Shown here: positions 162 through 50,553 of the stretch, piece by piece
Layout of the letters: every line of letters begins with the position of its first letter
Position numbering within the stretch: the first letter of the stretch is position 1
Assembly (NCBI GenBank): GCA_031387905.1
Contig: JANNDT010000208.1
Coordinates: 1 to 62,056 of the forward strand
DNA length: 62,056 nt
Direction of reading: 5' to 3'
Source of the DNA: Deltaproteobacteria bacterium
Lineage (GTDB): Bacteria > Myxococcota_A > UBA9160 > UBA6930
Program-made: the position numbers and the translations under genes
Notes under the pieces: model-generated
What the model was told of the DNA's origin: nothing
Databases searched by the model: none
Seen by the model: the letters and a program-made list of their open reading frames with translations, nothing else

Positions 162-2540
162 ATGCTAGACGCAAGGGCCCTTGCCTTGCCTAATAAATGT
201 CGTGCAGCAACCCTCGAATTCGTGATCCCCGACACCGAAATTCCGGATGCGGTAGGCGCGAGAGGAAGAGTTGTGGACACCGCGTCGATTGCGTTGGCCA
301 CTCTGTCAGAGCTCCCTTCGGCTCCGATCATCGTCTTCGACGCCGAGGCGCGCTGCGTCGCCGTCTTCGGCAAGCGCCGACCCGGCGCAGAGTTCCTGTT
401 CGGCGAACGCGAGGCGATCATCGGCCGCCCCGCCGAGGAGTACATGGGCTCTGAGGCTGCCGGCTTTCGGCGGACGCTCACGAGCGTGCTCGCAGCGGGC
501 GAATCGGCTTCGATCCAGTCTCGCGTGACGCTGCCGAGCGGCGAGTTCGTCTTCGAGTTGACGCTCTGGCCGCTGGCGGGCATGCCGCTGGTCGCCTGCG
601 AGCTCCGCAACGCGAGCGAGGTGGATCAGCTGCGCCGGGAGCGCGACGCCAGTGAGTCTCGCGTTCAGGCTGTGGCCGAACACACGGCGCACTTCGTGAC
701 CGAGGTGGCCGCCGACGGAACGATCGTCTACGTGGGACCGCGCGCTCGCGAGCTCTCGGTCGAGCCAGCTTCGCTCGTGGGCACCAACCTGCGCGACATC
801 GCGAAGCAGTTGCCGGGGTTGCATCCCGACGACGCACCGCTGGTCACTGCCTCGATGACGCGATTCATCGAGGCGCCGTCGGACTGGGTGCCATCTGTCG
901 CCCGCATGCGGAATCGCGACGGCTCCTGGCGAACCCTCGAGAGCGCCGGTGGTTCGTATGCGGGACCTGACGGAGAGCGGCGCGGTATTCTGGTGTTTCG
1001 CGACGCGCCGCCGAGCGCGGAGCGGGCCGTTCGCGAGCCCGCACGGCGGCCGGCTGTTGCGAGCAACACGAGCCAGCCGGTCGAGGCCACCCTCGACCTC
1101 TCGAGTGCTGGCACAATTTTGGGTGCGGGCCAGTTCCCGCCCAGTTTCGCGGGGTACGGCGAGAACCTGGTGGGCCGTGATGTGTACTCCTTCATCCATC
1201 CCGACGACCGGAAGCGTGCGCGCCGCAGCCTCGAGCGGAGCGTCCGCGGCGTCGGGTACGAGCCCAGCGTGTTCCGATGGCGCGATGTGGAGGACGGCTG
1301 GCGCTGGCTCGAAGTGCGCGCAGTCGCGCTGAAGCCGGATTCGGGAGAGGAACGCATCGTTGCGACGGCGCGCGAGATTCCCCGCGACAGCCTGCCCGAG
1401 CGCGAGCGGCCCGAGGAGAGCGGCGAGGCGCTGCAGCGAGACAATCTCGCGTTGCTCGTCGGCGGGGTCGCCCACGACTTCAACAATCTGCTCGCGATTT
1501 CGCTCGGCGTCGGGGATCTGATGGCGCAGCAGCTTCCCAGCGACTCTCCGCTTCGCCCGTACCTCGCTGAGATCGTCACCGCGAGCCGACAGGCGGCAGA
1601 CCTGTCCCGCCAGCTCTTGGCTGCCGCCGGAAGGGCCGCGGCAGCACCTCTGCGCCCTGTGGATTTGAACGAGATCCTGCGAAGTCAGGAATCCCTGTTG
1701 CGCACGGGCCTGCCCAAGAGCGTGCAACTCGAGTTCGCGCTCGCCGACGCGCCGCTCTGGATCGATGCGGACCCCCCGCAGATCCGCGAGGTCGTCCTGA
1801 ATCTGGTCGTCAACGCCGGCGAGGCGATCGGCGAGAGGCGCGGCACGGTTCGGGTCGCGACCGGTCGCGTTCAGGATCTGGATCCGCCCAACAAGCAGAC
1901 ACCCAGCGATTGGGCGCTGCTCGAAGTCTCGGACGACGGCCCGGGCTTCGACGAAGCGACGCGTCGGCGAATCTTCGAGCCGCGTTTCTCGACCAAGGCT
2001 ACGGGCCACGGGCTCGGGCTCGCGGTGGTGAGCAACGTCGTCCGCCGGCACGGTGGCCGCATCCACGTGGCGGGCGCGACGCTCCGCGGCACGACGTTTC
2101 GCATCGAGGTCCCGTGCTTGGCGGAGCGCGCTGTTCAGGCGGAGCAAGCGTTCGCGGCGAATCTCGCGCGGCCGCGCCACGCAGACGTCGGTGTGTTGAT
2201 CGTCGACGACGACGACGGCGTTCGCCGGGTGTGCGCCGCGATGCTCGGCTTCGCAAAGTTTCGTGTGTTCGAGGCCCGCGACGCAGCGACGGCGCTCGCG
2301 CTCGTCGAGCGGGAGCCGGAAATTTCCTGCGCGGTGGTCGACCTCATCATGCCCAATGGCGACGGGCTCGAACTGATCGAGGCGCTGCGCCGGAAGCGGC
2401 CGGACCTTCATGTCGTGCTCTGCAGCGGCGCCGTGCACAGAATCCCGGCGGATCGCGCCGATCTGGTCGTGCTCGAGAAGCCATTCCGCTACGCGCAGCT
2501 GATCGAGACGGTCTGGCGCGCGCTCGAGCCTCCGGCCTAA
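162..2540 (+). CDS. Hybrid sensor histidine kinase (PAS-like sensor repeats, HisKA/HATPase_c core, C-terminal receiver)
   Basis: 792-aa ORF with H-box GGVAHDFNNLLAISLG and ATP-lid boxes EVSDDGPGF and TGHGLGLAVV. The receiver shows VLIVDDDD ... VVDLIMPNGDG ... LEKPF. The true start may lie downstream of 162, because the first codons are AT-richer and promoter-like. Confidence 0.85.
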   Translation: MLDARALALPNKCRAATLEFVIPDTEIPDAVGARGRVVDTASIALATLSELPSAPIIVFDAEARCVAVFGKRRPGAEFLFGEREAIIGRPAEEYMGSEAAGFRRTLTSVLAAGESASIQSRVTLPSGEFVFELTLWPLAGMPLVACELRNASEVDQLRRERDASESRVQAVAEHTAHFVTEVAADGTIVYVGPRARELSVEPASLVGTNLRDIAKQLPGLHPDDAPLVTASMTRFIEAPSDWVPSVARMRNRDGSWRTLESAGGSYAGPDGERRGILVFRDAPPSAERAVREPARRPAVASNTSQPVEATLDLSSAGTILGAGQFPPSFAGYGENLVGRDVYSFIHPDDRKRARRSLERSVRGVGYEPSVFRWRDVEDGWRWLEVRAVALKPDSGEERIVATAREIPRDSLPERERPEESGEALQRDNLALLVGGVAHDFNNLLAISLGVGDLMAQQLPSDSPLRPYLAEIVTASRQAADLSRQLLAAAGRAAAAPLRPVDLNEILRSQESLLRTGLPKSVQLEFALADAPLWIDADPPQIREVVLNLVVNAGEAIGERRGTVRVATGRVQDLDPPNKQTPSDWALLEVSDDGPGFDEATRRRIFEPRFSTKATGHGLGLAVVSNVVRRHGGRIHVAGATLRGTTFRIEVPCLAERAVQAEQAFAANLARPRHADVGVLIVDDDDGVRRVCAAMLGFAKFRVFEARDAATALALVEREPEISCAVVDLIMPNGDGLELIEALRRKRPDLHVVLCSGAVHRIPADRADLVVLEKPFRYAQLIETVWRALEPPA

Positions 2541-2914
2541 CTGCGCGCGCTCAGCATGCTGCTGAGCACCGCGATCAACTGCGCTCGGTCGAAGGGCTTG
2601 CGAAGCACCGCTGCGGCGCCGAGCGCGAGCAGGTCGCTCGCGTCGTCATCCGTGAGGCCGCCGCCGAGCATGACGACGTCGATGTGCGCGAACGCGGGCG
2701 TCGCACGCATCGCGCGCAGTAACTGGCGCCCGTCGAGCATGGGCATCTCGACATCGGTCACGACGAGGTCGAACGCCTCCTGCGTGAGTCGGTCGAGCGC
2801 CTGCTGCCCGTCCGACGCCTCCGCGATGCCGTCGCTCGCGAAAGGCGAGTCGCGAAGGAACGCCGCGAGCAAGCGTAGGAAGCCCGGCGAGTCATCCACG
2901 ATGAGTGTCCGCAT
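2537..2914 (-). CDS. Single-domain CheY-like response regulator
   Basis: 125 aa with LIVDDS acidic pocket, DLVVTDVEMPMLDG phospho-Asp region and LRKPF conserved Lys. It is convergent with the kinase gene and overlaps its stop by 4 nt. Confidence 0.85.
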   Translation of the reverse strand: MRTLIVDDSPGFLRLLAAFLRDSPFASDGIAEASDGQQALDRLTQEAFDLVVTDVEMPMLDGRQLLRAMRATPAFAHIDVVMLGGGLTDDDASDLLALGAAAVLRKPFDRAQLIAVLSSMLSARS

Positions 2915-3106: not shown

Positions 3107-4522
3107 ATGAGCGCTCCGGTCGAGCCGCGCGATGCGCGCGGCAAGGCGCTCGCCGTCAACCTGGACGCGCGCCGTTATGGGACCTTCGCCGAGATCGGCG
3201 CGGGCCAAGAAGTCGTGCGCTGGTTCTTTCGCGTGGGCGGCGCGGCGGGCACGATCGCGAAGAGCATCTCCGCCTACGACATGACCGTGAGCGACGCGAT
3301 CTACGGCCCGTGTCATCGCTACGTTTGTCGCGAACGCTTGCTGTCGATGCTCGAGCGCGAGCAGCTGTTATTGCGCGAGCGCTTGGCGGAATCCCGCGGC
3401 GCCGAGACTGCGTTCTTTTCGTTCGCCGACACCGTCACCGCGCGCAGCTTCAAAGGCACCGGCGAGTGCCACGGCTGGATGGGCATCAAGTTCCAAGCCG
3501 AGCCGTGCGAGCCCGCGAGTCAGATCCTGCTTCACGTGCGCATGCTCGATGGCGATGCCGCCCAACAACAGGAGGCGCTCGGCATCGTCGGCGTGAACCT
3601 GGTGTACGGCGCCGCCTTCCTGCACGGCGACCCCGAGAAGTTGCTGCGCTCGCTGCTCGACGACCTCTCGACCGACCGCATCGAGATCGACCTGATCGAG
3701 TTCGGAGGCGCGCGCTTCAGCGAGGTGGACAATCGCGTAATGAGCCTGCGGCTCGTCGAGCTCGGGCTGTCGGGCGTCGCGGCCTTCGGACCCGACGGTG
3801 CGCTGCTCCAGCCCTCCGAGTTGCTGCACGGCAAGCCGGTGCTGATCGAGCGCGGCAGCTTCCGTCCGGTGACGCGCGTGCATCTCGACATGATCGGCTG
3901 CGCGCGCCAGGCGTTCCGCGCCGAGCTCGGCGGCGAAGAGCCGGTCGTGCTCGCCGAGATCACCATGCGCAACCTGCTGTCGGAGGGTGCGCTCGACTTG
4001 CGCGACTTCCTCGATCGCGCCGACGCGCTGGCCGCCATGGGATACACGGTGTTGATCTCGAACTATTTCGAGTACTTCAAGCTCGCCAGCTTCGTCGCCC
4101 GTCATACCCGCAAGCCGATCGCACTGGTGATGGGCGCGAACCTGTTGCGCGAGGTCTTCGAGGAGCGCTTCTACGACGAGCTCGACGGCGGCGTTCTCGA
4201 AGCTTTCGGGCGGCTGTTCCGTAATCACCTGCGCGTATTCGTGTATCCGTTCCTCGATCCGATCACACAGCGCATCGTCGACGCGCGCTCGCTCGAGGTG
4301 CCGAGCGGCCTCGCGCAGTTGCACGGCTACTTGTGCGAGCGCGGCTCGCTGGTAGCGCTTTCGGGCTACGACGAGCGCTTGCTGCCCTTCTACTCGAAGC
4401 AGGTGCTCGATTCGATTCGCAAGGGCACGCGCGCCTGGGAGGACGCCGTTCCCGAGCGCGTCGCGCGACTCATCCGGGAACGCGGCTTGTTCGGCTTCGG
4501 CGCCGAGCGGCCTCGCGCATGA
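3107..4522 (+). CDS. Conserved hypothetical protein (family not identifiable by eye)
   Basis: 471-aa ORF with GC3-rich coding-like codon usage. A GGAGG RBS sits 9 nt upstream of the ATG. Its stop overlaps the next start (ATGA at 4519..4522). Confidence 0.6.
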   Translation: MSAPVEPRDARGKALAVNLDARRYGTFAEIGAGQEVVRWFFRVGGAAGTIAKSISAYDMTVSDAIYGPCHRYVCRERLLSMLEREQLLLRERLAESRGAETAFFSFADTVTARSFKGTGECHGWMGIKFQAEPCEPASQILLHVRMLDGDAAQQQEALGIVGVNLVYGAAFLHGDPEKLLRSLLDDLSTDRIEIDLIEFGGARFSEVDNRVMSLRLVELGLSGVAAFGPDGALLQPSELLHGKPVLIERGSFRPVTRVHLDMIGCARQAFRAELGGEEPVVLAEITMRNLLSEGALDLRDFLDRADALAAMGYTVLISNYFEYFKLASFVARHTRKPIALVMGANLLREVFEERFYDELDGGVLEAFGRLFRNHLRVFVYPFLDPITQRIVDARSLEVPSGLAQLHGYLCERGSLVALSGYDERLLPFYSKQVLDSIRKGTRAWEDAVPERVARLIRERGLFGFGAERPRA

Positions 4523-6186
4523 ACGACGTCTCCTGGCTCCAGCTGATTTCGTTCGCGCTCACCGCCGCCATGTTCACGGGTCCCCTAGCCGTGCTGTTCG
4601 TCTGGTGGCTGCGCGATCGCACGCAGACGCAGCACGCGGTGCTGCGCGCGTTCCCGCTGCTCGGGCGCCTGCGATATTTGCTCGAGCACATCGGCCCCGA
4701 ACTGCGGCAGTACCTGTTCGACGGCGATTCTTCGGGCAAGCCGTTCTCGCGGAACGAGTTCCTGTCGATCGTGTTCGCGTCGAAGTACTTGAAGACGCTG
4801 ATCTCGTTCGGCTCGAAGCGCGACTTCGACCAGCCCGGCTGGTTCCTCCGCAACGCCCTCTTCCCGACGCTCGCGAGCGATCTAGGCGTCGACATGCGCG
4901 CCACCCTCGAGGCGCAGCGCTACGCGATCGATCACGAAGGTTTGCTGCACCGCGCGGAGCACCTCGAGCGAACGCCAGCCGCCACATGGACGCTCAGCGA
5001 CGAGCACGCGCTCCAGATTGGCAGCGACCTCGCGCAGCCGTGGGTCGTGCGCGGGCAAATCGGCGTCTCGGGAATGTCGTATGGCGCGCTCGGCAGCCAC
5101 GCCATTCGCGCGATCGCCGAGGGCGCCGCGCTCGCGACCGGAAGTTGGTTGAACACGGGCGAAGGCGGCCTCTCCGAGCACCACCTCGCGGGCGGCGGCG
5201 ACGTGATCTTCCAGATCGGGCCGGGTTGTTTCGGCGTGCGCACGCTGGAGGGGCGCTGGGATTGGGACGAGTTCGCGCGCAAAGCCGCGATCCCGCAGCT
5301 GCGCGGCTTCGAACTCAAGCTGCATCAGGGCGCAAAAATCCGCGGCGGCCACCTCGAGGGCAGCAAGGTCAACGAAGAGATCGCGCGGCTGCGCGGGGTC
5401 CCCGCCTGGCAGTCCGTCGATTCGCCTAATCGCTTCCAGTTCCTGGGCAGCGTCGACGAGCTCTTCGATCACGTCGCGCGCATGCGCGAAATCGGCGGCA
5501 AGCCCGTGGGCGTGAAGGTCGTGATGGGCGGCCCGGGCGCGGGCGACGAGTTGGCCGCGGCGATGGCGCGACGCGGCGACGGGCCGGATTGGATCACGGT
5601 CGACGGCGGCGAAGGCGGATCCGGCGCCACTTATCAGGAAATGGCGGACAGCGTGGGCCTGCCGATTCGCTCGGGCCTGGTGCTGCTCGACGACGCGCTG
5701 TGCGCCGCCGGCGTGCGCTCGCGCGTGAAGATCATCGCGTCCGGCAAGCTGTTCTCGGCCGATCGCGCCGCGCTTGCGCTCGCGCTCGGCGCCGATCTGG
5801 TGAACGTCGCGCGCGCCTTCATGATCTCGGTCGGCTGCATCCAGGCGCAGAAGTGCCACACCAATCAGTGCCCGACCGGCGTCGCGACGACCGACCCGCT
5901 GCGCATGCGTGCGCTGGTGGTCGACGAAAAGAAGTGGCGCGCGATGAATTACGTGATCGCGACGCGCGCCGGGCTCGCCTCCCTCGCGGCAGCCGCGGGG
6001 CTCGCTTCACCGACGCAGTTCACGCGCCGGCACGCGGTCTACCGCGACGCGCTCGGCCGCGTCATCGGCGCGGACGAACTGTTCCCGAGCGCGGGAGCCG
6101 CCGAGCGAGAGAGCCGCATGCAGGCCGCCGTCGAGAGTGCGCTCCGCCCGAGCAAGCGGCGCTTCGCCGCGCGCAGCGAGCCGTAA
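4519..6186 (+). CDS. FMN-binding glutamate synthase family protein (GltB FMN-domain-like) with N-terminal TM helix
   Basis: Start trimmed to ATG 4519 (MNDVSWLQLISFALTAAMFTGPLAVLFVWW). Motifs are GMSYGALG, NTGEGG, KLHQGAKIRGGHL, GGEGGSGA and the Cys cluster CIQAQKCHTNQCPTGV. Confidence 0.8.
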   Translation: MNDVSWLQLISFALTAAMFTGPLAVLFVWWLRDRTQTQHAVLRAFPLLGRLRYLLEHIGPELRQYLFDGDSSGKPFSRNEFLSIVFASKYLKTLISFGSKRDFDQPGWFLRNALFPTLASDLGVDMRATLEAQRYAIDHEGLLHRAEHLERTPAATWTLSDEHALQIGSDLAQPWVVRGQIGVSGMSYGALGSHAIRAIAEGAALATGSWLNTGEGGLSEHHLAGGGDVIFQIGPGCFGVRTLEGRWDWDEFARKAAIPQLRGFELKLHQGAKIRGGHLEGSKVNEEIARLRGVPAWQSVDSPNRFQFLGSVDELFDHVARMREIGGKPVGVKVVMGGPGAGDELAAAMARRGDGPDWITVDGGEGGSGATYQEMADSVGLPIRSGLVLLDDALCAAGVRSRVKIIASGKLFSADRAALALALGADLVNVARAFMISVGCIQAQKCHTNQCPTGVATTDPLRMRALVVDEKKWRAMNYVIATRAGLASLAAAAGLASPTQFTRRHAVYRDALGRVIGADELFPSAGAAERESRMQAAVESALRPSKRRFAARSEP

Positions 6187-6212
6187 GCGAGCGAAGTCGA
6201 ACAGTGGCCTCC
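6151..6212 (+). repeat. REP-like GC-rich element, copy 1 (contains the stop codon of the preceding gene)
   Basis: Sequence agcaagcggcgcttcgccgcgcgcagcgagccgtaagcgagcgaagtcgaacagtggcctcc. It shares GCGGCGCTTCGCCGCGCGCAG and GAACAGTGGCCTCC with the copy at 54985..55042. Confidence 0.6.
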
Positions 6213-6258
6213 CCGTTCGCTGCGCCTCAGCGCTTGCATTCCCGCGACGCCGGTAACG

Positions 6259-6310
6259 AGCAAGCGGCGCTTCGCCGCGCGCAGCGACCCGTAAGCGAGC
6301 GAAGTCGACG
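6259..6310 (+). repeat. REP-like element, copy 2 (tandem, 108-nt offset)
   Basis: 6259..6308 is 49/50 identical to 6151..6200 (single g/c difference). Confidence 0.65.
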
Positions 6311-6327
6311 CGGTAGCTGCGGACGCG

Positions 6328-7173
6328 CTACGCGCCGACCGATGCAAAGGCCGCTAGCGCGTCCTCGATATGGATCTCGAGTTCCGCCACCGCGATCTCA
6401 TCGATCTCGAGAGCCTGCGCCTCGAGCGTCCCCGCGAGTTGGCCCTCGGGCTTCGCCCCAATGCCGAAGCCGAGCGCGTTCGCCGCGTTGTCCGCGAGTC
6501 GCACGCTCATCAGCAGCGTGTCGGAATCCGCCGGCTGCGGATCGTGGTGGTGCTCGATCACGCGCGCGAACGACTCCGGCAGGTTCCACTGCTTCGCGAG
6601 GACAGCGCCGTAGCGAGCGTGTGTGCCGCTGAGGAGTTCGGAGATCAGTTGCGGAGCCGGCTTGAAATCCGCGCGCGCAATACGCAGGTCGTCGATCACG
6701 CGAATCGCGAGCAGCTTCCCGATGTCGTGCACCATGCCGGCGAGGAAAGCTTCGCCTGCGAGATCCCCGCGCCCGCTGCGCTGCGCGAGCCACTGCGCGC
6801 CCAGCGCCGTCGCGAGTGCGTGCTTCCAGAGCGCGCCGACCAGCGGCGAGAGATCCTTCGCCTGCACGCGATACGCGCTCTGCTGCGAGACGACGAGGGC
6901 GATGCGAGTCACCTGATCGATCCCGAGGCGCACCAACGAATCGCGCACCGTCTTCACCTGCGCGAGGCCTCCATAGAAGCTCGAGTTCGCGACGCGCAGC
7001 ACCGCGCTCGCGAGGACCGCGTCGCTGCTGATCGCTTGCTCGAGCGGCTCGCTGCTGTCCGGCGGATTGGCGAGCATTTGCTGGAGCTTCGCTGCGGCGC
7101 CCTGAAACATCGGCAGCTTGGTCTTGTTGCTGGCGATCTGGGCTTCCACCAGCTCGCTGAAGGATTGGGCCAT
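6328..7173 (-). CDS. HDOD domain protein
   Basis: 281 aa with LPMFQGAAAKLQQML, SSDAVLASAVLRVANSSFYG and MVHDIGKLL, typical HDOD/HD-like signatures. It starts 3 nt after the upstream ATPase stop. Confidence 0.85.
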   Translation of the reverse strand: MAQSFSELVEAQIASNKTKLPMFQGAAAKLQQMLANPPDSSEPLEQAISSDAVLASAVLRVANSSFYGGLAQVKTVRDSLVRLGIDQVTRIALVVSQQSAYRVQAKDLSPLVGALWKHALATALGAQWLAQRSGRGDLAGEAFLAGMVHDIGKLLAIRVIDDLRIARADFKPAPQLISELLSGTHARYGAVLAKQWNLPESFARVIEHHHDPQPADSDTLLMSVRLADNAANALGFGIGAKPEGQLAGTLEAQALEIDEIAVAELEIHIEDALAAFASVGA

Positions 7174-7176
7174 ATC

Positions 7177-9036
7177 TCATTCCCCCAAGAGCAGGTGCAA
7201 CTCTTCCAGTGTGCGCGGCCGGTCGAGCCGCGGAATCGATTCGATGATTTCACTGACGGTCGTTTCACCGCGCGCGGCCTTGACGATCGCGTCCTCGAGC
7301 AGCGAGACCAGCCCCTTCTCACGGCTGATCTTGCGAATCTCGTAGGAAGCTTTGCGGTTCAGGATCGCCTCGCGGACTTCTTCGCCGAGTACGAGCAGCT
7401 CGAACACTGCGATGCGGCCCGCGTAGCCGGTACGTCGGCACTTCGAGCAGCCACGCCCCTTGCGCATGCGCGTGCTGTCGAGCGCCCCCGCGGTGTAGCC
7501 GAGCTGGCGCAAATCCGACGCGGTCGGCGTGTAGGGCTGCGCGCAGTGCTCACAGACGCGGCGTAACAACCGCTGCGCGAGCACGCTCACTACCGTCGAG
7601 GAGATCAAGAACGCCTCGATCTCCATGTTGAGCAGGCGAACCAAGCCGCCGATCGTGTCCTCGGTGTGAAAGGTCGAGAGCACCTTGTGCCCCGTCAGGG
7701 CAGCCTGGATCGCGGCCTGGGCCGAAAACGTGTCGCGAATCTCGCCGATCACGATGATGTCGGGGTCCTGGCGCACGATGTGGCGCAGAGATTCCTCATA
7801 GGTCATGTCGAGAGCCGCATTGAGCGAGCACTGGGCCACGCCGTCGATCACGTACTCGACCGGGTCTTCGGCCGTGATGATCGCGTTGCTGCCGTCGTTC
7901 AGGTAACTGACGCAGCTGTAGAGCGTCGAGGTTTTTTCGGAGCCCGTTGGCCCTGTAATTAGGATGACGCCGCTCGGTCGTTCGAGCGCGTCGTCCTTGA
8001 AGTGCTGGAGCGTCACGGGCGGCATGCCGAGCTCGTCGATCGGCACGAGCGAGCGATCGCGGTTGAGCAGGCGCAGCACCGTTTTCTGGCCGTGCACCGT
8101 CACGTAGAAAGAGGCGCGCAGATCGAGCTCGCGGCCGCCGCGCGGCTTCGTGAAGCGCCCCCCCTGATGCCTGCGCCGCTCGGCGATGTCGGCGCCAGCG
8201 AGGATCTTGAGGTGGCTCGTGAGCGGGGCGAGCAGCGAAGTCGGAAGGTCGCGATAAGTCACCATCGTCCCGTCTGCCCGGAAGCGCACACGGATGCGGT
8301 CCGCGAGCGGCTCGATGTGAATGTCGCTCGCGCCCCACTCGACAGCCGCCTCGATCAGCTGGTCGACCGCCGCGACGACGGCGCCCGTGTCCAGATCCTT
8401 CGTCCCGCCACCGGGCTTGCGCGCCGCGAGCACACGCTCCCAGGCGAGTTCGATCGAGCGTGGCGTCGCAAGCACGCGCTCGGTGGTGTCTGCTCCGAAA
8501 AACTGCTGCGCGGCCTGCAGCGCCTGCTCGTCGACCGGATCCGCGAAGGCGACGACGACCTTGCCCTTTTCTCGGCGCAGCGGGATGAAGCGATGCTGGC
8601 GGCAATAATCGAACGGGGCGATGCGCAGCAGCGCAGCGTCGATCGGCTCGAACTCGGGCGCGACGAGTGGGCGTCCGAGCTGCAGCGCCAGCGTGCGATA
8701 CAGCTGATCCTCGGAGAGCAGATCCTCGCTCAGCAGCAACTCGCCGAGCCGCTTGCCCGGCGCCTCGCGCTGCTTGGCCATGACGCGCGCGAGTTCCACC
8801 TCGGTGACCAGGCCGAGATCGACGAGCATCTCGCCGAGCCGCAGCTCCGCCGGGTTTCGCGACAGCACTTCCTGGATCGCCGCGTCGTCGACGTGCCCCA
8901 GCTCCTTCAGGATTGTGAGCAACGGCCGCGGCGGCTTCAGCTTGGCTTGGATGCGTTCGGCGTGACGCAGCTGCTGCTCCGAGAGCACGCCTTCGCGCAC
9001 GAGCAAGGCGATCACACCGCCGCTGTTTTCCGACAT
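7177..9036 (-). CDS. GspE/PilB/MshE-family secretion-type ATPase with N-terminal MshEN-like repeats and non-canonical Walker A
   Basis: 619 aa with tandem RLGxxL(V/L)xx(G/D)L(V/L)...Q motifs at aa 66-119. Walker A reads GPTGSEKT. It has Asp box IITAEDPVEY, Walker B DPDIIVIGEIRD, His box TGHKVLSTFHT and tetra-Cys CEHC...CSKC. Confidence 0.85.
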   Translation of the reverse strand: MSENSGGVIALLVREGVLSEQQLRHAERIQAKLKPPRPLLTILKELGHVDDAAIQEVLSRNPAELRLGEMLVDLGLVTEVELARVMAKQREAPGKRLGELLLSEDLLSEDQLYRTLALQLGRPLVAPEFEPIDAALLRIAPFDYCRQHRFIPLRREKGKVVVAFADPVDEQALQAAQQFFGADTTERVLATPRSIELAWERVLAARKPGGGTKDLDTGAVVAAVDQLIEAAVEWGASDIHIEPLADRIRVRFRADGTMVTYRDLPTSLLAPLTSHLKILAGADIAERRRHQGGRFTKPRGGRELDLRASFYVTVHGQKTVLRLLNRDRSLVPIDELGMPPVTLQHFKDDALERPSGVILITGPTGSEKTSTLYSCVSYLNDGSNAIITAEDPVEYVIDGVAQCSLNAALDMTYEESLRHIVRQDPDIIVIGEIRDTFSAQAAIQAALTGHKVLSTFHTEDTIGGLVRLLNMEIEAFLISSTVVSVLAQRLLRRVCEHCAQPYTPTASDLRQLGYTAGALDSTRMRKGRGCSKCRRTGYAGRIAVFELLVLGEEVREAILNRKASYEIRKISREKGLVSLLEDAIVKAARGETTVSEIIESIPRLDRPRTLEELHLLLGE

Positions 9037-9064
9037 GACACGTCTCCGCCGCGAGGGCGCGGCT

Positions 9065-10354
9065 CTACTGGCCGAGTTGGACGAGGTTTGCGAGCAGCTC
9101 GTTGGTGGTGGAGATGGTGCGCGTGTTCGCCTGGAACGCGCGCTGCTGAAGGATCAAGCGCACGAACTGGGCCGCCAGGTCGACGTTCGACTGCTCGATG
9201 GCGCTCGCGCGGATCGACCCGAACTGGCTCGTGCGCGGGTTCCCGATCAGCGGCTGGCCGGATTCGCGCGTCTCGCCCCAGTTGTTATTTCCGATGGAGC
9301 GCAGCCCCTCGACGGAAGCGAACGAGGCCAGCGCGACCTGTGCGATCGGTCGCGTCTCGCCGTTCGAGAAGGTCGCCGTGACGAAGCCGCTGCGATCGAC
9401 CGCGAGGCTGGTGAGGGTTCCCGGCGGGAAGCCGTCCTGCGTCTTCGAGTTGACGCCGGAGTTCGCCGATCCGAACTGCGTGGTCGGCGTGCCGGTTCCG
9501 GCGCCCGCGATCGGACCGAAGGCGACTGCGACGGGCTGGCTCGCGGCTGCACCGCCGGAGAACTGATAGTTGAGCGGCGAACCGGTCATGCCCGTCAGGT
9601 TGCCCGTGTTGTCGAACGTCAAGGTGCCGGAGCCCTGCACCACCACGGTGTCGTTCGGACCCGCGAGCGGGAGCGTGGTATCCGCCGGCGGCAGCGTCGC
9701 GTTCCAGCTCCAGGTGTTAGAGCCGGTGCGGTTGAAGAAGATCTCCGACTGGTGTGCGTTGCCGAGCGTGTCGTAGAGCGACATGCCGACCTGGAAATTG
9801 GTCGAGCCGTTCGTGTTGGCGGGATCGAAGGCAAGGATCTGCGCGTTCGCGTCGAGGTTCAGCGACAGCTGCATCGTCGAGCTCGCGCGCGGCGGAGAGA
9901 CGGCGTTGTTGATCTGAATGTCTCCCACCTGGCTCGTCGGCAAGAGCGTCACCGGATCGATCCCGTAGCCCTGTACACGCATGCCGAGCGGATCGGTGAG
10001 CAAACCGTTGCGGTCGAACGAAAATAACCCCGCGCGCGAGTAGCTGCGGCCTTGGACGCCATCCAGGACGAAGAAGCCTTGACCTTCGATCGCCATGTCG
10101 GTGACGCGCGAAGTCGTCTCGAAGCTGCCTTGACTGAAGATCTGGCTGACATTGAGAACGGTTGCGCCCCCGCCGGTTTGCGCGAAGCCGCCGCTGGTGG
10201 CGAGCGATTGGCCGAGCACGTCGGCGAACTCGGCGCGGCGTTCCTTGAAGCCGGGGGTTCCGACGTTGGCGATGTTGTCGCCGATCACCGAGATCGCGGT
10301 CGACGCGGTGTCGAGGCCCGTGACGCTGGCGAACATTGCGCTGGAGAGAGACAT
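9065..10354 (-). CDS. flgE: Flagellar hook protein FlgE
   Basis: 429 aa. The N-terminus is MSLSSAMFASVTGLDTASTAISVIGDNIANVGTPGFK. The C-terminus is IEQSNVDLAAQFVRLILQQRAFQANTRTISTTNELL (flagellar basal-body rod/hook family ends). Confidence 0.9.
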   Translation of the reverse strand: MSLSSAMFASVTGLDTASTAISVIGDNIANVGTPGFKERRAEFADVLGQSLATSGGFAQTGGGATVLNVSQIFSQGSFETTSRVTDMAIEGQGFFVLDGVQGRSYSRAGLFSFDRNGLLTDPLGMRVQGYGIDPVTLLPTSQVGDIQINNAVSPPRASSTMQLSLNLDANAQILAFDPANTNGSTNFQVGMSLYDTLGNAHQSEIFFNRTGSNTWSWNATLPPADTTLPLAGPNDTVVVQGSGTLTFDNTGNLTGMTGSPLNYQFSGGAAASQPVAVAFGPIAGAGTGTPTTQFGSANSGVNSKTQDGFPPGTLTSLAVDRSGFVTATFSNGETRPIAQVALASFASVEGLRSIGNNNWGETRESGQPLIGNPRTSQFGSIRASAIEQSNVDLAAQFVRLILQQRAFQANTRTISTTNELLANLVQLGQ

Positions 10355-10409
10355 GCTTGATTACCTCGTTTGTGATTGAAAAGTTCGACGTGTCGCGATG
10401 CGTGTGGCG

Positions 10410-11057: not shown

Positions 11058-11066
11058 GAGAACTCC

Positions 11067-19016: not shown

Positions 19017-19032
19017 TGCAACCGGTGTGCCA
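19017..19032 (-). promoter_or_regulatory. sigma54 (RpoN) -24/-12 promoter of the flgB operon
   Basis: Minus strand reads TGGCACaccggTTGCA, an exact match to TGGCAC-N5-TTGCW with correct GG-N10-GC spacing. Confidence 0.85.
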
Positions 19033-19203: not shown

Positions 19204-20448
19204 TCAGCGGGTTGCGCGCAACTTGTTGCGGAGCGTGCGGACGTGAATGCCGAGCGCGCGGGCAGCGAGCGTGCGATCGCCGCCGCTCGCGGTGAGAGCG
19301 CGCGCGATCGTAGCCCGCTCGAGCGTCGCGAGATCGAGCGTGGCGCCGTCCGCGGTGAGTGGCTGCGCCGCGGCGAGCGGCCGCGCGAGGCGCGCGAAAT
19401 CGATGCTGCGGCCCGCAAACAGCAGCGCGGCACGCCGCATCAGCCCATCTAGTTCGGGCAAGTTCCCCGGGAAAGGCCGCGCGGCGAGCGCCGCGAGCCC
19501 TGCAGCGTCGAGTCGCGCGGGCGCCTCGCCGGCTGCGCGCGCGGCGCGCTCGAGGAAGTGCTGCGCGAGCGCCGGCAGGTCGAGCGGACGTTCGCGCAAT
19601 GCGGGAATCGCCAGCGGCTCGAACCCGAAGTGAATGCCGAGTGCCGGCAGCAGGCGCCTGGCTGCGACCTCGGCCGCAAGCGATCGGCGCGATGTGACCA
19701 CGACCCGCGCCGCGCTGCGCGAGAGCACGCCGTCCGCATCGGCCAGCCGGCCCGCCCTCAGGCAACTCAGTAACAAGCTCTGCGAAACGATCGGAAGATC
19801 GCCGACCTCTTCGAGCACGAGCGTGCCGCCGACCGCCATGTCGACGGCCTCCAGCAGCGCGTCCTCCGGACGCGGCACGCGCGCATCCGCGTTCCACATC
19901 TCGGAGAGCTCCGCGCACTGAAGCTCTACCAACCGCGAACCGAGTGCGGCGCTCCGCTGGTGGAGCCAACGCGCCAGCTGCGTCTTGCCGGTTCCGACCT
20001 CACCGCTGAGCGCGACCGTGAGCGAGGTCGAAGCCAGCGCTTCGAGGCGCTCGAGGAGCTGGCGATAAGCGGGGTCCCGGGCGATCGGGCGCTCGCAGCG
20101 ATCGTCGCGAGCATCCATCAGGCGTGTGAGCGTCGCCTCTAGAAGCGCTGGCGCGAACGGCTTGCAGAGCGTCGCGTCGGCGCCAGCCGCCGAAGCGGCA
20201 ATCAGGGCGGCAGGCGAGCTGCTGCGGAGCAGCGCGAGGATCGGCAGCGCGGGCGCGAGACGGCGAGCGCGCTCGATCGCGAGGCAGCCCTCCGCGTTCT
20301 CGACGTCCAGCACGAGAGCCTGTGCGCCTAACAGGTGATCCTGGGCGCTCTCGCTGGCGACGGCGCGCGACGCGAACCCTGCGCGTCCGAGCGCCCGCGC
20401 GAGCGCGCGGCGCAAGCTCGCATCGGAGCACGCGACGAGCACGCTCAC
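19204..20448 (-). CDS. NtrC-family REC-AAA+-Fis_HTH regulator lacking the GAFTGA sigma54-contact loop
   Basis: Start GTG 20448 overlaps the upstream stop (GTGA). The receiver shows ALVLDVE ... LCKPF. Walker A is GEVGTGKTQ and Walker B is GGTLVLEEV. The segment where ESELFGHEKGAFTGA should lie reads AELSEMWNADARVPRPEDALLEAV. The C-terminal HTH is LAARALGIHVRTLRNKL. Confidence 0.8.
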   Translation of the reverse strand: MSVLVACSDASLRRALARALGRAGFASRAVASESAQDHLLGAQALVLDVENAEGCLAIERARRLAPALPILALLRSSSPAALIAASAAGADATLCKPFAPALLEATLTRLMDARDDRCERPIARDPAYRQLLERLEALASTSLTVALSGEVGTGKTQLARWLHQRSAALGSRLVELQCAELSEMWNADARVPRPEDALLEAVDMAVGGTLVLEEVGDLPIVSQSLLLSCLRAGRLADADGVLSRSAARVVVTSRRSLAAEVAARRLLPALGIHFGFEPLAIPALRERPLDLPALAQHFLERAARAAGEAPARLDAAGLAALAARPFPGNLPELDGLMRRAALLFAGRSIDFARLARPLAAAQPLTADGATLDLATLERATIARALTASGGDRTLAARALGIHVRTLRNKLRATR

Positions 20449-21047
20449 GGCGCCTCCTCGGCCGCGAGCCGGAGCTGGACGCGCAGGGGTCGACCGGCGC
20501 GCATCGGCTCGCGCTCGAGTTCGGCCCCTTCCGCGAGCGCAAAGCGTTCGAGTAGCTCGTCGATTAGGGCCGACTTCGAGTCGCGTGTCGGTCGCACCTC
20601 CAGCCCGAGGCGAGCGCCCGAACCGGCGCGCTCGAGCGACAACGTGATCTCGCCGCCCTCGCGCACCGCCAGGCACGCAACCCGGAGCAGACGCGTCGCA
20701 GCGCGACGTACCGCCGCCGGATCTCCGAGGACCGGCTCAGCGCCGGCCGCGAGGCAGAGCGTTGCGGAATGCGCAGCCAGCGCGGCGCATGCGCGCGAGC
20801 GGATCTCTGCCAGGGCGGGCCGGCAATCGCTGCGCGGTTCGTGGGCCCGCTGCTCGCGGGGCCCGAGCGCGCGCTCGAGTTCGCCGAGCCGCCCCGCCAC
20901 GTCCCCTAATGCCCCCGAGATTGCCGCCGCCCGCTCGCGCAGCTCATGCGGGCGCGCGCTCTCCAGCCGTTGCAGCGCGAGCGCGATGCGCGTGAGGGGA
21001 TCGCGCAGCGCGGACAGCGCCCTGCCCGCCAAAGCGTCGCGCCTCAT
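20445..21047 (-). CDS. Degenerate histidine-kinase-like protein (no sensor domain, H-box and ATP-lid motifs eroded)
   Basis: Start trimmed to ATG 21047 (200 aa), which overlaps the TPR gene stop. The DHp-like helix reads LSALRDPLTRIALALQRL where SHELRTPL is expected. No N-box Asn, DxGxG or GxGxG motif is recognisable. Confidence 0.5.
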   Translation of the reverse strand: MRRDALAGRALSALRDPLTRIALALQRLESARPHELRERAAAISGALGDVAGRLGELERALGPREQRAHEPRSDCRPALAEIRSRACAALAAHSATLCLAAGAEPVLGDPAAVRRAATRLLRVACLAVREGGEITLSLERAGSGARLGLEVRPTRDSKSALIDELLERFALAEGAELEREPMRAGRPLRVQLRLAAEEAP

Positions 21048-23651: not shown

Positions 23652-23667
23652 AGCAAGCCACGTGCCA
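23652..23667 (-). promoter_or_regulatory. sigma54 -24/-12 promoter of the PilZ-TPR operon
   Basis: Minus strand reads TGGCACgtggcTTGCT with exact consensus spacing. Confidence 0.8.
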
Positions 23668-29391: not shown

Positions 29392-29407
29392 AGCAATCCG
29401 CATGCCA
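29392..29407 (-). promoter_or_regulatory. sigma54 -24/-12 promoter upstream of fliC
   Basis: Minus strand reads TGGCATgcggaTTGCT with correct spacing. It lies 164 nt upstream of the fliC ATG. Confidence 0.7.
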
Positions 29408-38777: not shown

Positions 38778-38793
38778 AGCAATCGACGTGCCA
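38778..38793 (-). promoter_or_regulatory. sigma54 -24/-12 promoter of the flgF operon
   Basis: Minus strand reads TGGCACgtcgaTTGCT, an exact consensus match. It lies 29 nt upstream of the flgF ATG. Confidence 0.85.
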
Positions 38794-38941: not shown

Positions 38942-39796
38942 TCATCCGAACAGCCCGCGCGCCGCCTGCGCCTCGCCGCCCACCATCTCGAGCACGGGCT
39001 CCACGTCGGCCGGAGTCAGGCCGAGCGCGCCCCAAGCCGGCAGGGCGGTCAGATCGATCGCATCGACGATCCCGCGCCGGCCGAGGCCGAGACGCGTACA
39101 GACTCGCGTCACGACGCTGGTCAGCGAGATCAAACGCGACTGCTCGGGAGGCAGCGCCGGGTAGTCGTCTGGTGCGTGATGGTGGTAACGGATCGCCAAC
39201 ACCAGCGGCTCGGGCAGGTTCCACTTCTTCGCCACCTGCGCGCCGAGCAGCGCGTGGTCGAACCCGAACTCCTCGCGCTCGGCATCGACCGCGGCGATGC
39301 CCTCGTTGTACGTGCGCGAGACGACTTTCTGGTAGCGCTCCCGGAACACGTTCATGAATGCGATCTTGCCGAGGTCGTGCAGCAGGCCGGCAGTGAAGGC
39401 GGACTCGCGCTCGACGCCGACATCGCGGTACTTCGAGAGCTTCGCAGCGATCACGCCCGCGAACGTCGAGTGCTCCCATAACATCTTCTCGGCGAGCCCG
39501 AACTGCTTGAACGTGTCGCGCAGAGAGGCGGCCATCACCAAGCTCTCGACGGTTTTGAAGCCGAGCAGCGTGACGGCGTGCCGGAGCGTCTCCACTTCGC
39601 GGCGGAAGCCGTAGAGCGAGGAGTTCGCGACCTTGAGCACCCGCGCTGCGAGGCTCGGATCCTGCTCGAGGATCTGCCGCAGCGCGTCCGCGGACGCGTT
39701 GGGGTCGGCAGTGGTGGTCATCACCTTGCTCGCGATCGACGGAATCGTCGGCAATTCACCGACGATGCTGACGGCGCGTTTGAGCTCGGAGTCCAT
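38942..39796 (-). CDS. HDOD domain protein (second paralog)
   Basis: 284 aa with LPTIPSIASKVM, DPSLAARVLKVANSSLYG and GLLHDLGKIAF. It starts 3 nt after the flhG stop. Confidence 0.85.
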   Translation of the reverse strand: MDSELKRAVSIVGELPTIPSIASKVMTTTADPNASADALRQILEQDPSLAARVLKVANSSLYGFRREVETLRHAVTLLGFKTVESLVMAASLRDTFKQFGLAEKMLWEHSTFAGVIAAKLSKYRDVGVERESAFTAGLLHDLGKIAFMNVFRERYQKVVSRTYNEGIAAVDAEREEFGFDHALLGAQVAKKWNLPEPLVLAIRYHHHAPDDYPALPPEQSRLISLTSVVTRVCTRLGLGRRGIVDAIDLTALPAWGALGLTPADVEPVLEMVGGEAQAARGLFG

Positions 39797-45888: not shown

Positions 45889-46959
45889 CTACCGCAGGCC
45901 CTGAACGAGGGCGCCGAGCACGAGGTTCCAGCCGTCAGCGAGTACGAACAGCATCAGCTTGAACGGCAGTGAGACCACCACTGGCGGCAGCACGATCATG
46001 CCCATCGAGATCAGCAGCGAGGAGACGACCAGATCCACCACCAGAAACGGCAGGAACACCATGAAGCCGATCTCGAAGGCGGTGCGCAGCTCGCTGATTA
46101 GGTGAGCGGGCACCAGCGCGGTCAGCGGAACGTCATCGACGGTCGCCGGCCGCTGCTCCGTGAACTCGAGGAAGACCGCGAGATCGCTCTCGCGCGTGGT
46201 TTTTGCCAAGTACGCGCGGATTGGCACCAGCGCTCGCGTACCGGCCTCGCGCGCGTCGATCTGTTCCGCGACGTAAGGCTCGTAGGCCGCCACGCGTACC
46301 TGCTCACCCACCGGCGACATCACTCCGAGCGTGAGGAACAGCGCGAGACCGACGAGCACCTGATTCGGCGGCGTGTGCTGGAGCCCGATCGCCTGCCGTA
46401 GCAATGCGAGCACGACCACGATGCGCGTGAAGCAGGTGAGCATCAGCAGGATCGCGGGCGCCACGCTCACCAGTGTGAGCAACGCCAGCATCTCGAGCGC
46501 CGAGGAAAGTTCTGCGGGCGCGCCCGGCGCGTCGAGCGAGATGTGGATACCCGCACCGCTGCCCGGCGTCGCGGCGGCTTCGGCGCCTGGCTTTTCGCTC
46601 GGCGGCGCGGCGAAGGCCGACGCCGAGACGACGAAGCAGGCGAGCGCCAGCAGCAGCGACGCCAGCAGGCGCGAGCGCTTCGCCACGCGAGGTTCGGCCT
46701 CGGCGACCCCAACGGCCGCGGTCTCGATCGGCAGCGAGCGCAGGAACGAGATCTGCGTGTCCGTAACACCCAGCACGAGCCGCTCGCTGCCGGCTTCGAC
46801 CACGCATAGCCGCTTGCGCGGTCCGAGCGTGACACCGCCGACGATGCGCAGGGTTGTCGCCGTTTGGTCCGGCAGGCCAATGCCTCGCCAGCGCAACACG
46901 GCGCGCAGGGCGAACAAGAGCGCCAACACGAAACTGAGTGCACTGAGTGTCTCGGCCAT
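45889..46959 (-). CDS. fliP: FliO-FliP fusion protein
   Basis: 356 aa. The first ~85 aa are a TM helix plus LRIVGGVTLGPRKRLCVVEAGSERLVLGVTDTQISFL (FliO-like). A second signal-like segment follows, then canonical FliP (LLTLVSVAPAILLMLTCFTRIVVVLALLRQAIG ... GFMVFLPFLVVDLVVSSLLISMGM). Confidence 0.85.
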   Translation of the reverse strand: MAETLSALSFVLALLFALRAVLRWRGIGLPDQTATTLRIVGGVTLGPRKRLCVVEAGSERLVLGVTDTQISFLRSLPIETAAVGVAEAEPRVAKRSRLLASLLLALACFVVSASAFAAPPSEKPGAEAAATPGSGAGIHISLDAPGAPAELSSALEMLALLTLVSVAPAILLMLTCFTRIVVVLALLRQAIGLQHTPPNQVLVGLALFLTLGVMSPVGEQVRVAAYEPYVAEQIDAREAGTRALVPIRAYLAKTTRESDLAVFLEFTEQRPATVDDVPLTALVPAHLISELRTAFEIGFMVFLPFLVVDLVVSSLLISMGMIVLPPVVVSLPFKLMLFVLADGWNLVLGALVQGLR

Positions 46960-48803: not shown

Positions 48804-50201
48804 TTATTCCGCGAACGCGCCGTCGGCGGCGCCGAGAGGGTCTCTGCCGTCGATCCCGAACGTCTTCAGTCGCCGCCACAACGTCGTCGTCGAGATCTGC
48901 AGCAGCTGCGCGGCACGGCGGCGGTTCCAGCCCACGCGCTCGAGCGTCTCGAGGATGTGCCGTCGCTCGAGCGCCCCGAGGCTCTCGGGCTGCGTGCGGA
49001 GCTGGGCCGCGAGCGGCGGCTGAGCGCTGCCGAGCGACGGGATGTCGTCTGCGCGGATCACATCGGACTGGCACAGCGCGACGGCTCGCTCGATCACGTT
49101 CTCGAGTTCGCGCACGTTGCCCGGCCAGCGATAGCCGAGCAGGCGATCGATCGCGGCGGAATCGAGCTCGCACTTCTGTTTGCGCCAGCGCGCGGAGACT
49201 CGCCCCGCGAAGTGGCGCGCGAGCAGCGGCACGTCCTCCATCCGCTCGCGCAGCGGAGGCACTTCGATCGGAATGACCGCGAGCCGGTAGTAGAGATCCT
49301 CGCGGAACGCGCCGCGCGCGATCTCGCGTTCGAGGTGCTTGTTAGTGGCCGCGACGAGGCGCACGTCGACGACCCGCGTCGACGCGCTACCGACCGCGCG
49401 GATCTCTCCCGTCTGAAGGAAGCGCAGCAGCTTCGCCTGCATCGAGAGCGGCATCTCGGCCACCTCGTCGAGGAAGACCGTGCCGCCCGCGGCTTCCTCG
49501 AAGAGCCCCTCGCTATTGCTGGTCGCCCCCGTGAACGAGCCGCGCCGATGCCCGAACAGCTCACTCTCGAGCAGCGTCTCGGGGAATGCGGCCGAGTTGA
49601 CGGCGCACCAAGGGCGAGCGACGCGCGGGCTCGCGTCATGAATTGCGCGCCCGATCAAGTCCTTGCCGGTGCCGGTCTCACCGAGCACGAGCACGGTGCT
49701 GTCGGTTCGCGCGACGCGGATCACCAAGTCGAACAGACGCCGCATCGCGGGAGACTCTCCGAGCATGCCGGCGAGCGGCCGCACAGGCGAGTCGCGCTGC
49801 ACTTCCGGGGCGAACGATGCAAACAGTTCGTCGAGCGCCGCGTCGCTCAGCGGCTGCCTCAGCCAATAACAAACGCCAGCGCGGTTCACGGCGTCGCGGG
49901 CAGCGGACGGATCGTCACCCGCCGAGATCAGTACGCGCGCCACCAGCGGCCAATGCAAGCGCACGGACTCGAGGAACTCGATGCCGTGCCAGGAGCCCGG
50001 CTCGTCACTCGCGATCACGAGGTCGAAACGCTCGACGCTCATGCAGCGCAGCGCTTCCTCGAACGTCGCCGCTTCCGCCAGGCGATCGACGCGCGGCTCG
50101 AGCCTGCGCGCGAGCGACGCGCGTGCACCGGCTTGGTCGCCGGCCAACAGAATCCGCCGCGCCTGCCTGCGGTCCAACTGAACTTCCACTGCGCTGCTCA
50201 T
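48804..50201 (-). CDS. sigma54-dependent REC-AAA+-HTH activator (FleQ/FlrA-position master regulator candidate)
   Basis: Start trimmed to ATG 50201 with a GGAGG RBS. The receiver shows RILLAGDQ ... FDLVIASDE. Walker A is GETGTGKD, the sigma54 loop is ESELFGHRRGSFTGA and Walker B is GGTVFLDEV. The C-terminal HTH is RRAAQLLQISTTTLWRRLK. Confidence 0.85.
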   Translation of the reverse strand: MSSAVEVQLDRRQARRILLAGDQAGARASLARRLEPRVDRLAEAATFEEALRCMSVERFDLVIASDEPGSWHGIEFLESVRLHWPLVARVLISAGDDPSAARDAVNRAGVCYWLRQPLSDAALDELFASFAPEVQRDSPVRPLAGMLGESPAMRRLFDLVIRVARTDSTVLVLGETGTGKDLIGRAIHDASPRVARPWCAVNSAAFPETLLESELFGHRRGSFTGATSNSEGLFEEAAGGTVFLDEVAEMPLSMQAKLLRFLQTGEIRAVGSASTRVVDVRLVAATNKHLEREIARGAFREDLYYRLAVIPIEVPPLRERMEDVPLLARHFAGRVSARWRKQKCELDSAAIDRLLGYRWPGNVRELENVIERAVALCQSDVIRADDIPSLGSAQPPLAAQLRTQPESLGALERRHILETLERVGWNRRRAAQLLQISTTTLWRRLKTFGIDGRDPLGAADGAFAE

Positions 50202-50271
50202 CGCGAGCCTCCATTGCCGAGCAGGCGGCCGGCGAACGCCGAAACCGCAAGTCGATTTGTTTCGAAATCCA

Positions 50272-50290
50272 GCATTTCGACTCGAACTGC
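50272..50290 (-). promoter_or_regulatory. Degenerate copy of the shared motif upstream of the activator gene
   Basis: GCATTTCGACTCGAACTGC matches 15/19 to the flgB motif. It lies 71-89 nt upstream of the ATG. No sigma54 promoter with correct spacing was found nearby. Confidence 0.3.
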
Positions 50291-50553
50291 CTTTCTCGCG
50301 TGTGCAACGAAGCCCCGGTTCTCTCGCGTTGCCGCGCACTTCGAGCCTCTTCATCGGATGTGTCGCCGGTCGCCGTATCCGCGGAACCACGCAATTCGGA
50401 GCGCGAAAACCGGGATGCAGACCGCGGGCCGCGATTCCATTTGGAATGCGGAGGAACGTTCGTCCCACGCGCCGTAGCGCGGCGAACTGGCAATGCGCTG
50501 CCACGGAAGCGCGTGGCGCGCGGCGCTCGCTAGTTAGGGAACGCGGACCAGGA

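Follow-up and report, generated by a model that had tools for sequence, protein, structure and literature searches.

An MshEN-bearing PilB-like ATPase and its HDOD partner at the end of a flagellar hook operon

Here we analyzed a stretch of 62,056 nucleotides (hereafter the window) from a Deltaproteobacteria bacterium, and in it a gene for a PilB/PilF-like ATPase that lies directly behind the flagellar hook gene flgE and directly in front of a gene for an HDOD protein. The explanation that we prefer overall, with about even confidence, is that the two genes form a regulatory cassette responsive to cyclic di-GMP (c-di-GMP) that was appended to the hook operon in the lineage of the window. What is new is the subfamily itself, a group of PilB-like ATPases with an MshEN c-di-GMP module that is defined by its obligate HDOD partner. 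The invariant partner of this ATPase is the HDOD gene and not the flagellum, a point missed by the preliminary description of this DNA.

The ATPase, its clade and its HDOD partner

The open reading frame (ORF) of the ATPase was confirmed as 619 amino acids on the minus strand (7177..9036, -). Its ATG (9036) stands 28 nt from the stop codon (9065-9067) of flgE, the hook gene immediately upstream (9065..10354, -; Pfam FlgE_D2 and NCBIfam FlgE families), and its own stop codon (7177-7179) is separated by 3 nt from the ATG (7173) of the HDOD gene, which encodes 281 amino acids in the same reading frame (6328..7173, -; Pfam HDOD 137 bits, HD 40.5 bits). These coordinates bear out the ORF size and both gaps given in the preliminary description, and the profile and fold comparisons likewise uphold its assignment of the protein to the PilB/GspE superfamily. 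Pfam T2SSE (PF00437) matches residues 216-598 (352.7 bits; cut-off 24.9), and the protein scores below the equivalog cut-offs of both PilB (TIGR02538, 454.2 bits; cut-off 675.65) and GspE (TIGR02533, 440.5 bits; cut-off 630.25). An AlphaFold2 model from an alignment of 64 homologues (mean predicted local distance difference test score, pLDDT, 85) places, from the N- to the C-terminus, two four-helix modules (residues 8-60 and 67-120), an alpha/beta domain like T2SSE_N, the N2 and C-terminal ATPase domains with a PilB-like fold, and a short extra helix at the C-terminus. With Foldseek the core superposes on Thermus PilF and Geobacter PilB (5OIU, 5IT5, 5TSH) with template-modelling (TM) scores of 0.92-0.94 and 41-43% identity. 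The Asp box AEDPVEY, Walker B DPDIIVIGEIRD, His box TGHKVLSTFHTED and the four cysteines Cys495/498/530/533 are all found where they had been described, and they are invariant or nearly so among the relatives defined below.

Among the homologues of PilB/PilF-type hexameric ATPases, the protein falls into a separate clade that is widespread and has no name as yet. Alignments show its signature, AERRRHQGGR (8155..8184, -), in the N2 domain, where the clade reads AE[RK]RRHQ[GD]GR versus ERRxPQDGR in canonical PilB and GspE; the His box of the clade reads TFHTED. A further mark of this 'RRHQGGR' clade is a C-terminal tail (residues 600-619; 7180..7239, -) with the pattern [LVI]PRLxxPRxLxELRxLLG, in which P602 and R608 are invariant and R603, L604 and P607 at least 90% conserved. 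The tail lies beyond the PilB homology, as the T2SSE hidden Markov model (HMM) and the alignments to PDB structures stop at about residue 598, and the model gives it a helix at 610-616.

To collect members we scanned metagenomes with the N2 signature as seed, which returned at least 472 relatives; 80 loci were fetched and, together with exact-protein look-ups, make up a clade set of 90 loci. A scan of contigs with patterns from the window protein alone, which were too specific, had given one close relative (locus L001) and 19 canonical PilB/GspE loci, kept as positive and negative controls, and a library-wide HMMER search (55,969 T2SSE cluster representatives) completed the material. Carriers of the cassette are Myxococcota-like, Desulfobacterota and gammaproteobacterial genomes, with Geothermobacter ehrlichii (P0340), Desulfobulbus rhabdoformis (P0362) and Rhabdochromatium marinum (P0351) as named examples, and their ATPases are labelled only PilB, GspE or TadA in the sources.

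The feature that holds the clade together is the gene that follows the ATPase. Where at least 700 nt of downstream sequence were available (n=73), an HDOD gene came directly after the ATPase in 72 loci, versus none of the 19 canonical PilB/GspE loci, and the gene tables of the looked-up loci contained the pair in 11/11 cases. All-against-all clustering of the flanking ORFs gave no further conserved neighbour, the next real cluster covering at most six loci. The HDOD partner keeps H118, H149-D150, H185 and H209-H210, and because of these residues a metal-dependent activity is possible. Its ratio of non-synonymous to synonymous substitution rates (dN/dS) relative to L001 is 0.14. Among 150 best cluster representatives there was no protein in which ATPase and HDOD were fused, and our literature search found no paper linking HDOD with MshEN or PilB, or an HDOD protein with a secretion-type ATPase, and nothing of relevance on PilB and c-di-GMP in connection with flagellar gene clusters. 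A role in defence was considered and set aside: the ATPase had no PADLOC match, and the HDOD protein had only weak, generic HD-domain (Cas3/Cas10) matches.

The N-terminus of the ATPase points to c-di-GMP as its ligand. Residues 66-119 (8680..8841, -) read RLGEMLVDLGLVTEVELARVMAKQ-REAPGK-RLGELLLSEDLLSEDQLYRTLALQ, that is, two canonical 24-residue MshEN c-di-GMP motifs in tandem with a linker of six residues, as had been recognized before. They score 62.5 bits with the NCBIfam c-di-GMP motif NF053729, above its curated cut-off of 38, and two matched stretches are reported for this profile in the N-terminus. Residues 120-206 match PF05157 (69 bits). When the N-terminal 215 residues were used as query, residues 61-176 aligned to the structure of the MshE N-domain (5HTL, E=6e-12), and the same query also matched the c-di-GMP domain of PilF (8PFA, E=4e-7). 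In the model the canonical module has helices at 67-73, 79-91, 97-103 and 109-120, and in the clade (119 homologues) residues G68, L71, G75, L82, Q89, G98, L101 and L116 are 95-100% conserved. Compared with the published definition of the motif (PMC12943098), motif 1 deviates once (L21 is Met) and motif 2 once (G10 is Asp), and the linker has six residues versus five; in the alignment, the linker of Geobacter PilB is longer as well. Binding of c-di-GMP by this module is therefore a prediction well supported by sequence. In front of it lies a first four-helix module (residues 8-60; 8857..9015, -), which the helices of the model (8-14, 20-32, 39-45 and 51-60) and its conservation in the clade (R28 invariant; L12, Q22, A26, L33 and L46 at least 90% conserved) mark as a degenerate MshEN_N-like repeat without RLG. 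An unusual MshEN architecture was also met outside the clade, in Hydrogenedentota metagenome-assembled genomes (MAGs): locus L002 (6279..9386), and similarly L003 and L004, encodes a protein of about 1035 amino acids that combines MshEN (PF05157) with a DnaA-type ATPase domain and is encoded a short way upstream of the gene for a canonical PilB-like ATPase.

Genes of a fibre machinery are missing around the pair. T2SSF, pilin and secretin families had no match among the approximately 60 window ORFs scanned, and a search of the six frames of the window for the prepilin N-terminal motif was equally negative. An HMM of the platform protein T2SSF (PilC/GspF), which we built from neighbours at the canonical loci and confirmed against Pfam, matches 10/19 canonical loci and has no match in the window or in about 95 clade loci. 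The absence of pilin, platform and secretin genes from the 62 kb, asserted previously, is thus confirmed, and the survey of related loci adds that a platform gene never adjoins the cassette. The ATPase-HDOD pair is hence a two-gene cassette, 'orphan' with respect to fibre machinery.

These results bear on the possibility that the protein is an ordinary extension ATPase of the type IV pilus or type II secretion kind, with the genes for its platform, pilins and secretin lying in another part of the genome. On this account c-di-GMP would stimulate the fibre as in MshE, the HDOD protein would be an accessory, and the position behind flgE would only co-time pilus and flagellum. We regard it as possible, if on balance doubtful. 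The similarity of the core to PilB and PilF (41-43% identity, TM 0.92-0.94), the invariance of Walker A, Walker B, Asp box, His box and tetra-Cys motif in the clade under strong purifying selection, and the fact that only the local gene context was covered all speak for it. Against it stand the absence of an adjacent T2SSF gene in all of about 95 clade loci versus its presence in 10/19 canonical ones, the scores under the PilB and GspE equivalog cut-offs, the altered N2 motif and the extra conserved tail, and the existence of offshoots that have destroyed ATPase motifs and are nevertheless retained with an HDOD partner.

These offshoots are near-clade relatives with a wrecked Walker A, Walker B and His box (Walker A reading, for example, GPAGAGRA, GPASSGCT or GPLESGRT) and intact MshEN motifs (P0154/L115, P0271, P0131, P0132, P0138, P0142, P0149, P0160, P0169, P0173 and P0184). 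Each of them is nearer to the active clade than to other dead relatives, which suggests that the ATPase motifs were lost repeatedly and independently. Two of them, P0154 and P0271 (76% identical to each other; P0271 reads GPTGSGLT), nest beside the intact P0083, to which they are 65% identical. P0154 is identical in two sequencing runs and retains the HDOD gene 3 nt downstream, and this ATPase-dead cassette (locus L115) lies beside motB-motA. Other clade ATPases are fused to an N-terminal domain like MinD/ParA/FlhG (P0124, P0132, P0164) or to a REC domain (P0166), the MinD/ParA domain of P0124 being 36% identical to the FlhG of the window (E=4e-46). Several clade loci moreover have neighbourhoods rich in signalling genes (histidine kinase, REC, GGDEF and PilZ genes). 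It is because of these dead or fused relatives, the lack of a platform gene and the abundance of signalling genes nearby that we favour a regulatory unit over a fibre motor.

The glutamate in the Walker A motif

The Walker A motif of the window protein reads GPTGSEKT and so departs from the consensus GxxxxGK[ST]: codon 367 (7936..7938, -) is read directly as GAA, for glutamate, in place of the invariant glycine before the lysine. The preliminary description had reported this broken P-loop and had suggested a possibly catalytically dead regulator. The substitution is indeed present, and it is no feature of the family. The sequence GPTGSGKT is found in 119/119 of the closest homologues (48-91% identity), so that among 120 proteins glutamate occurs in that of the window only, and the closest relative L001, a MAG also named 'Deltaproteobacteria bacterium' (90% amino acid and 87% nucleotide identity), has GGC at this codon. 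Since the orthologues have glycine, catalytic death as a trait of the family is refuted.

The codon could in principle reflect a sequencing or consensus error beside a run of A (GAAAAAAC), the true codon being GGA. A single base separates GAA from GGA, the context is homopolymeric and the glutamate is unique among the homologues. We nevertheless consider an error very improbable, because a 4.4-kb Logan contig from run SRR20217213 (L114), which was assembled independently and differs from the window by four other single-nucleotide polymorphisms, has the same GAA. Glu367 is thus probably a real allele at the level of the strain. In the chemistry of the P-loop, a side chain at the glycine before the lysine should hinder phosphate binding; the substitution is accordingly predicted to impair nucleotide binding, and the protein of this strain is probably ATPase-deficient. 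Such a deficient state has precedents, because related lineages have lost the ATPase motifs and kept MshEN and HDOD.

A disabled P-loop could also mark a gene that has only just been inactivated and is starting to decay, the cassette being dispensable in the population of the window, and the uniqueness of a substitution at the most constrained residue of the P-loop fits this idea. Two further replacements of N2-domain residues conserved in at least 97% of the clade, R275H (8212..8214; in SRxK) and E317Q (8086..8088; the Glu of GEK), were observed in the same sub-lineage and could be counted in the same sense. They are, however, common to the window, P0002 and L001; the latter two have intact P-loops, and the two changes are therefore older than G367E. 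The ORF is also intact, and substitutions polarised with outgroups show no excess on the branch of the window (29, against 24 on the sister branch). For the ATPase gene as a whole, dN/dS relative to L001 is 0.12, and for its ATPase part it is 0.08. These low ratios, the balance between branches and the intact, constrained HDOD partner indicate that the gene is not decaying and evolves, by these sequence measures, under strong purifying selection; incipient decay is consequently unlikely. The same dN/dS values and branch symmetry speak against a long-term relaxation of selection behind Glu367.

Linkage to the flagellar hook operon

The window holds a near-complete flagellar regulon, comprising fliL to flhA-flhF-flhG; flgA, flgH and flgI; flgN, flgK and flgL; fliC, fliD and fliS; flgC followed by fliF to fliK; flgD and flgE; and motAB, along with a GGDEF gene and a gene for a protein with PilZ and cyclic-nucleotide-binding (cNMP) domains. 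The genes from flgC to the HDOD gene are contiguous on the minus strand. The spacer between flgE and the ATPase (28 nt; 9037..9064, -) contains, as judged from its sequence and fold, a 6-bp hairpin, GCCGCG-CCCT-CGCGGC, and a GGAG ribosome-binding site. When positions 5900-11200 were scanned for sigma-70 promoters and intrinsic terminators, none was found in the intergenic gaps, including this one; two terminator-like matches inside the ATPase coding region were dismissed as being at chance level. Upstream of flgB/C lies a perfect sigma-54 consensus, TGGCAC-N5-TTGCA (19017..19032, -), a candidate promoter of the operon that ends in the ATPase and HDOD genes, and no other perfect match occurs between it and position 6328. 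The flgB...flgE operon with the cassette at its 3' end thus appears to be driven by sigma-54. Sites with two mismatches were at chance level (25 observed versus 19 expected), and only intergenic sites with a perfect match or one mismatch were used; the others are perfect at 23652..23667 (-) and 38778..38793 (-), and have one mismatch at 29392..29407 (-). Together, the intergenic sites lie upstream of flgB/C, of an unannotated gene of 190 codons, of flgF/G and of fliC. The window also encodes two sigma-54 enhancer-binding proteins (19204..20676, with a weak and split AAA+ match, and 48804..50504).

The order flgE-ATPase-HDOD recurs in relatives: in L113 (66% identity, 24-nt gap), L110 (69%, 30-nt gap), L021 (70%, with an extra HDOD gene inserted) and L024 (58%). 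Because of this recurrence, the contiguous strand and a 28-nt gap without a terminator-like site, co-transcription of the cassette with flgE is a plausible prediction; the arrangement itself has persisted in the lineage. Farther away the linkage fades. Among clade loci with flanks of 8 kb or more (n=47, non-redundant), five have flagellar genes adjoining the cassette, and in the 42-55% identity band this is so for 1/38. Beyond the near relatives (66-70% identity) two loci stand out, namely L115 with its motB-motA neighbours and the gammaproteobacterial locus L028 with the order fliC-flaG-fliD-tPilZ-ATPase-HDOD-cheY-cheA. To judge from these gene orders, linkage to the hook operon is conserved only in the near relatives of the window, with sporadic motility neighbours elsewhere. 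The placement in a flagellar operon put forward in the preliminary description thus stands as the tail of the hook operon, recurring in near relatives, and gives way as a general rule, being specific to the lineage.

It follows that the reading proposed there, a catalytically dead PilB-like sensor of c-di-GMP that is dedicated to the flagellar operon and controls the motor or the assembly of hook or filament, appears quite improbable to us. Glu367 is real in two assemblies, the linkage to flgE is kept in near relatives, and ATPase-dead relatives are found next to motAB, all in line with that proposal. The dead P-loop is confined to the strain of the window, though, all the flgE-linked relatives have an intact Walker A, and most members of the family are not near flagellar genes.

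HDOD genes beyond the partner were observed as well. A second stand-alone HDOD gene follows directly after flhF-flhG (38942..39796, -; Pfam HDOD 198.7 bits) and is about 29% identical to the partner, and extra HDOD paralogues flank the cassette in L021, L024 and L110; HDOD genes seem to be woven into the flagellar clusters of this lineage. The PilZ and cyclic-nucleotide-binding protein of the window (50554..51357, -) recurs in L112 (12768..13589) and in L001 (at about +7.8 kb). All three loci have it close to the cassette, and it is a further candidate integrator of c-di-GMP and cNMP. Other neighbours are shared too. A protein of 471 amino acids without a Pfam match (3107..4522, +) and a glutamate-synthase-domain protein after it (4333..6186, +) also lie downstream of the cassette in L021 (15307..18383), the relative with 70% identity, and a PAS-histidine kinase-REC hybrid kinase with a single REC gene (162..2914) is likewise syntenic. 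Among the flagellar genes themselves, an ORF of 356 amino acids (45889..46959, -) matches FliO (residues 32-101) and FliP (160-351), representing either a fusion or an over-extended start.

A proposed c-di-GMP-responsive unit and its relation to known systems

Placing these results into a model, and by analogy with MshE, PilF and PilB, c-di-GMP would bind the MshEN module and gate the ATPase. Instead of powering a neighbouring fibre, the ATPase would form with the HDOD protein a regulatory unit that responds to c-di-GMP, and in the lineage of the window the expression of this cassette with the hook-basal-body genes would couple the level of c-di-GMP to motility. The G367E protein would be deficient in ATPase activity, with its binding of c-di-GMP and of the HDOD partner preserved.

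The closest precedent is MshE of Vibrio cholerae, with which the clade shares the T2SSE_N fold, a PilB-type ATPase and, at the N-terminus, an MshEN_N module of four helices whose RLGxxL..G..L..L..Q motifs stand in tandem, and by analogy with which control of the ATPase by c-di-GMP is expected. MshE, however, has its gene in the msh pilus operon together with those of platform and pilins, and the clade is never found beside such genes; the clade differs further in its additional degenerate front module resembling MshEN, its linker of six rather than five residues, the RRHQGGR motif, the C-terminal tail and the obligate HDOD neighbour. Thermus thermophilus PilF and Geobacter PilB (6F8L, 5OIU, 5TSH, 5ZFR) are the best matches in sequence and structure, have the tetra-Cys zinc site and, in the case of PilF, also repeat the MshEN/GSPII module; yet the clade lacks a pilC/pilT/pilM-Q neighbourhood, and neither an HDOD partner nor a location in the hook operon is a feature of PilB or PilF. 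The partner resembles SadB of Pseudomonas (YbaK and HDOD) and Cj0248 of Campylobacter (1VQR) in being an HDOD protein, stands alone with conserved H/HD/H/HH residues and, unlike SadB, has no YbaK domain. HDOD proteins have been linked to the regulation of flagella and work through contacts between proteins, SadB being described as an adaptor (PMC12075610, PMC6543031). If our proposal is right, the cassette would be comparable to the PilZ brakes YcgR, FlgZ and PlzC and to FleQ, namely a c-di-GMP receptor in the flagellar regulon that links the second messenger to motility. It would differ from them in that the receptor fold is MshEN rather than PilZ or AAA+ and is carried on the large body of a hexameric ATPase.

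A more radical version of this proposal, tentative and in our view rather unlikely, is that the cassette signals c-di-GMP as a stand-alone device and powers no fibre whatsoever. Derived from PilB and controlled by c-di-GMP through its MshEN modules, the hexamer would act with the HDOD protein on, for example, flagellar export, switch or stator, and ATPase activity would be dispensable, as the G367E protein and P0154/P0271 would illustrate, leaving a receptor-adaptor. Were this true, the HDOD domain would for the first time be assigned a defined partner and pathway.

Several points weigh against the regulatory cassette as we propose it. The catalytic motifs, the tetra-Cys zinc motif and the PilB-like fold are strictly conserved in the clade, which speaks for most members being working motors, with a platform perhaps encoded elsewhere, and our view of the genome spans 62 kb only. 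No motility gene is nearby in 42 of the 47 clade loci with long flanks, so that a role in motility may concern some lineages only. The effect of G367E is a prediction, and the two assemblies with GAA may come from related samples.

The HDOD domain is very common in bacterial signalling and to our knowledge has no established biochemical role, and PilB-type ATPases are thought of only as motors of fibres. The cassette described here is tightly coupled and free of a platform, and it offers a concrete candidate partner for HDOD. For the annotation of genomes, the labels PilB, GspE and TadA on proteins of this clade are probably misleading. The natural Walker A mutant of the window and the relatives with degenerate motifs constitute ready-made separation-of-function alleles. 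Our results suggest that evolution has put ATPases of the secretion type to use as modules of c-di-GMP signalling and that in some lineages these modules have been wired into the flagellar regulon.

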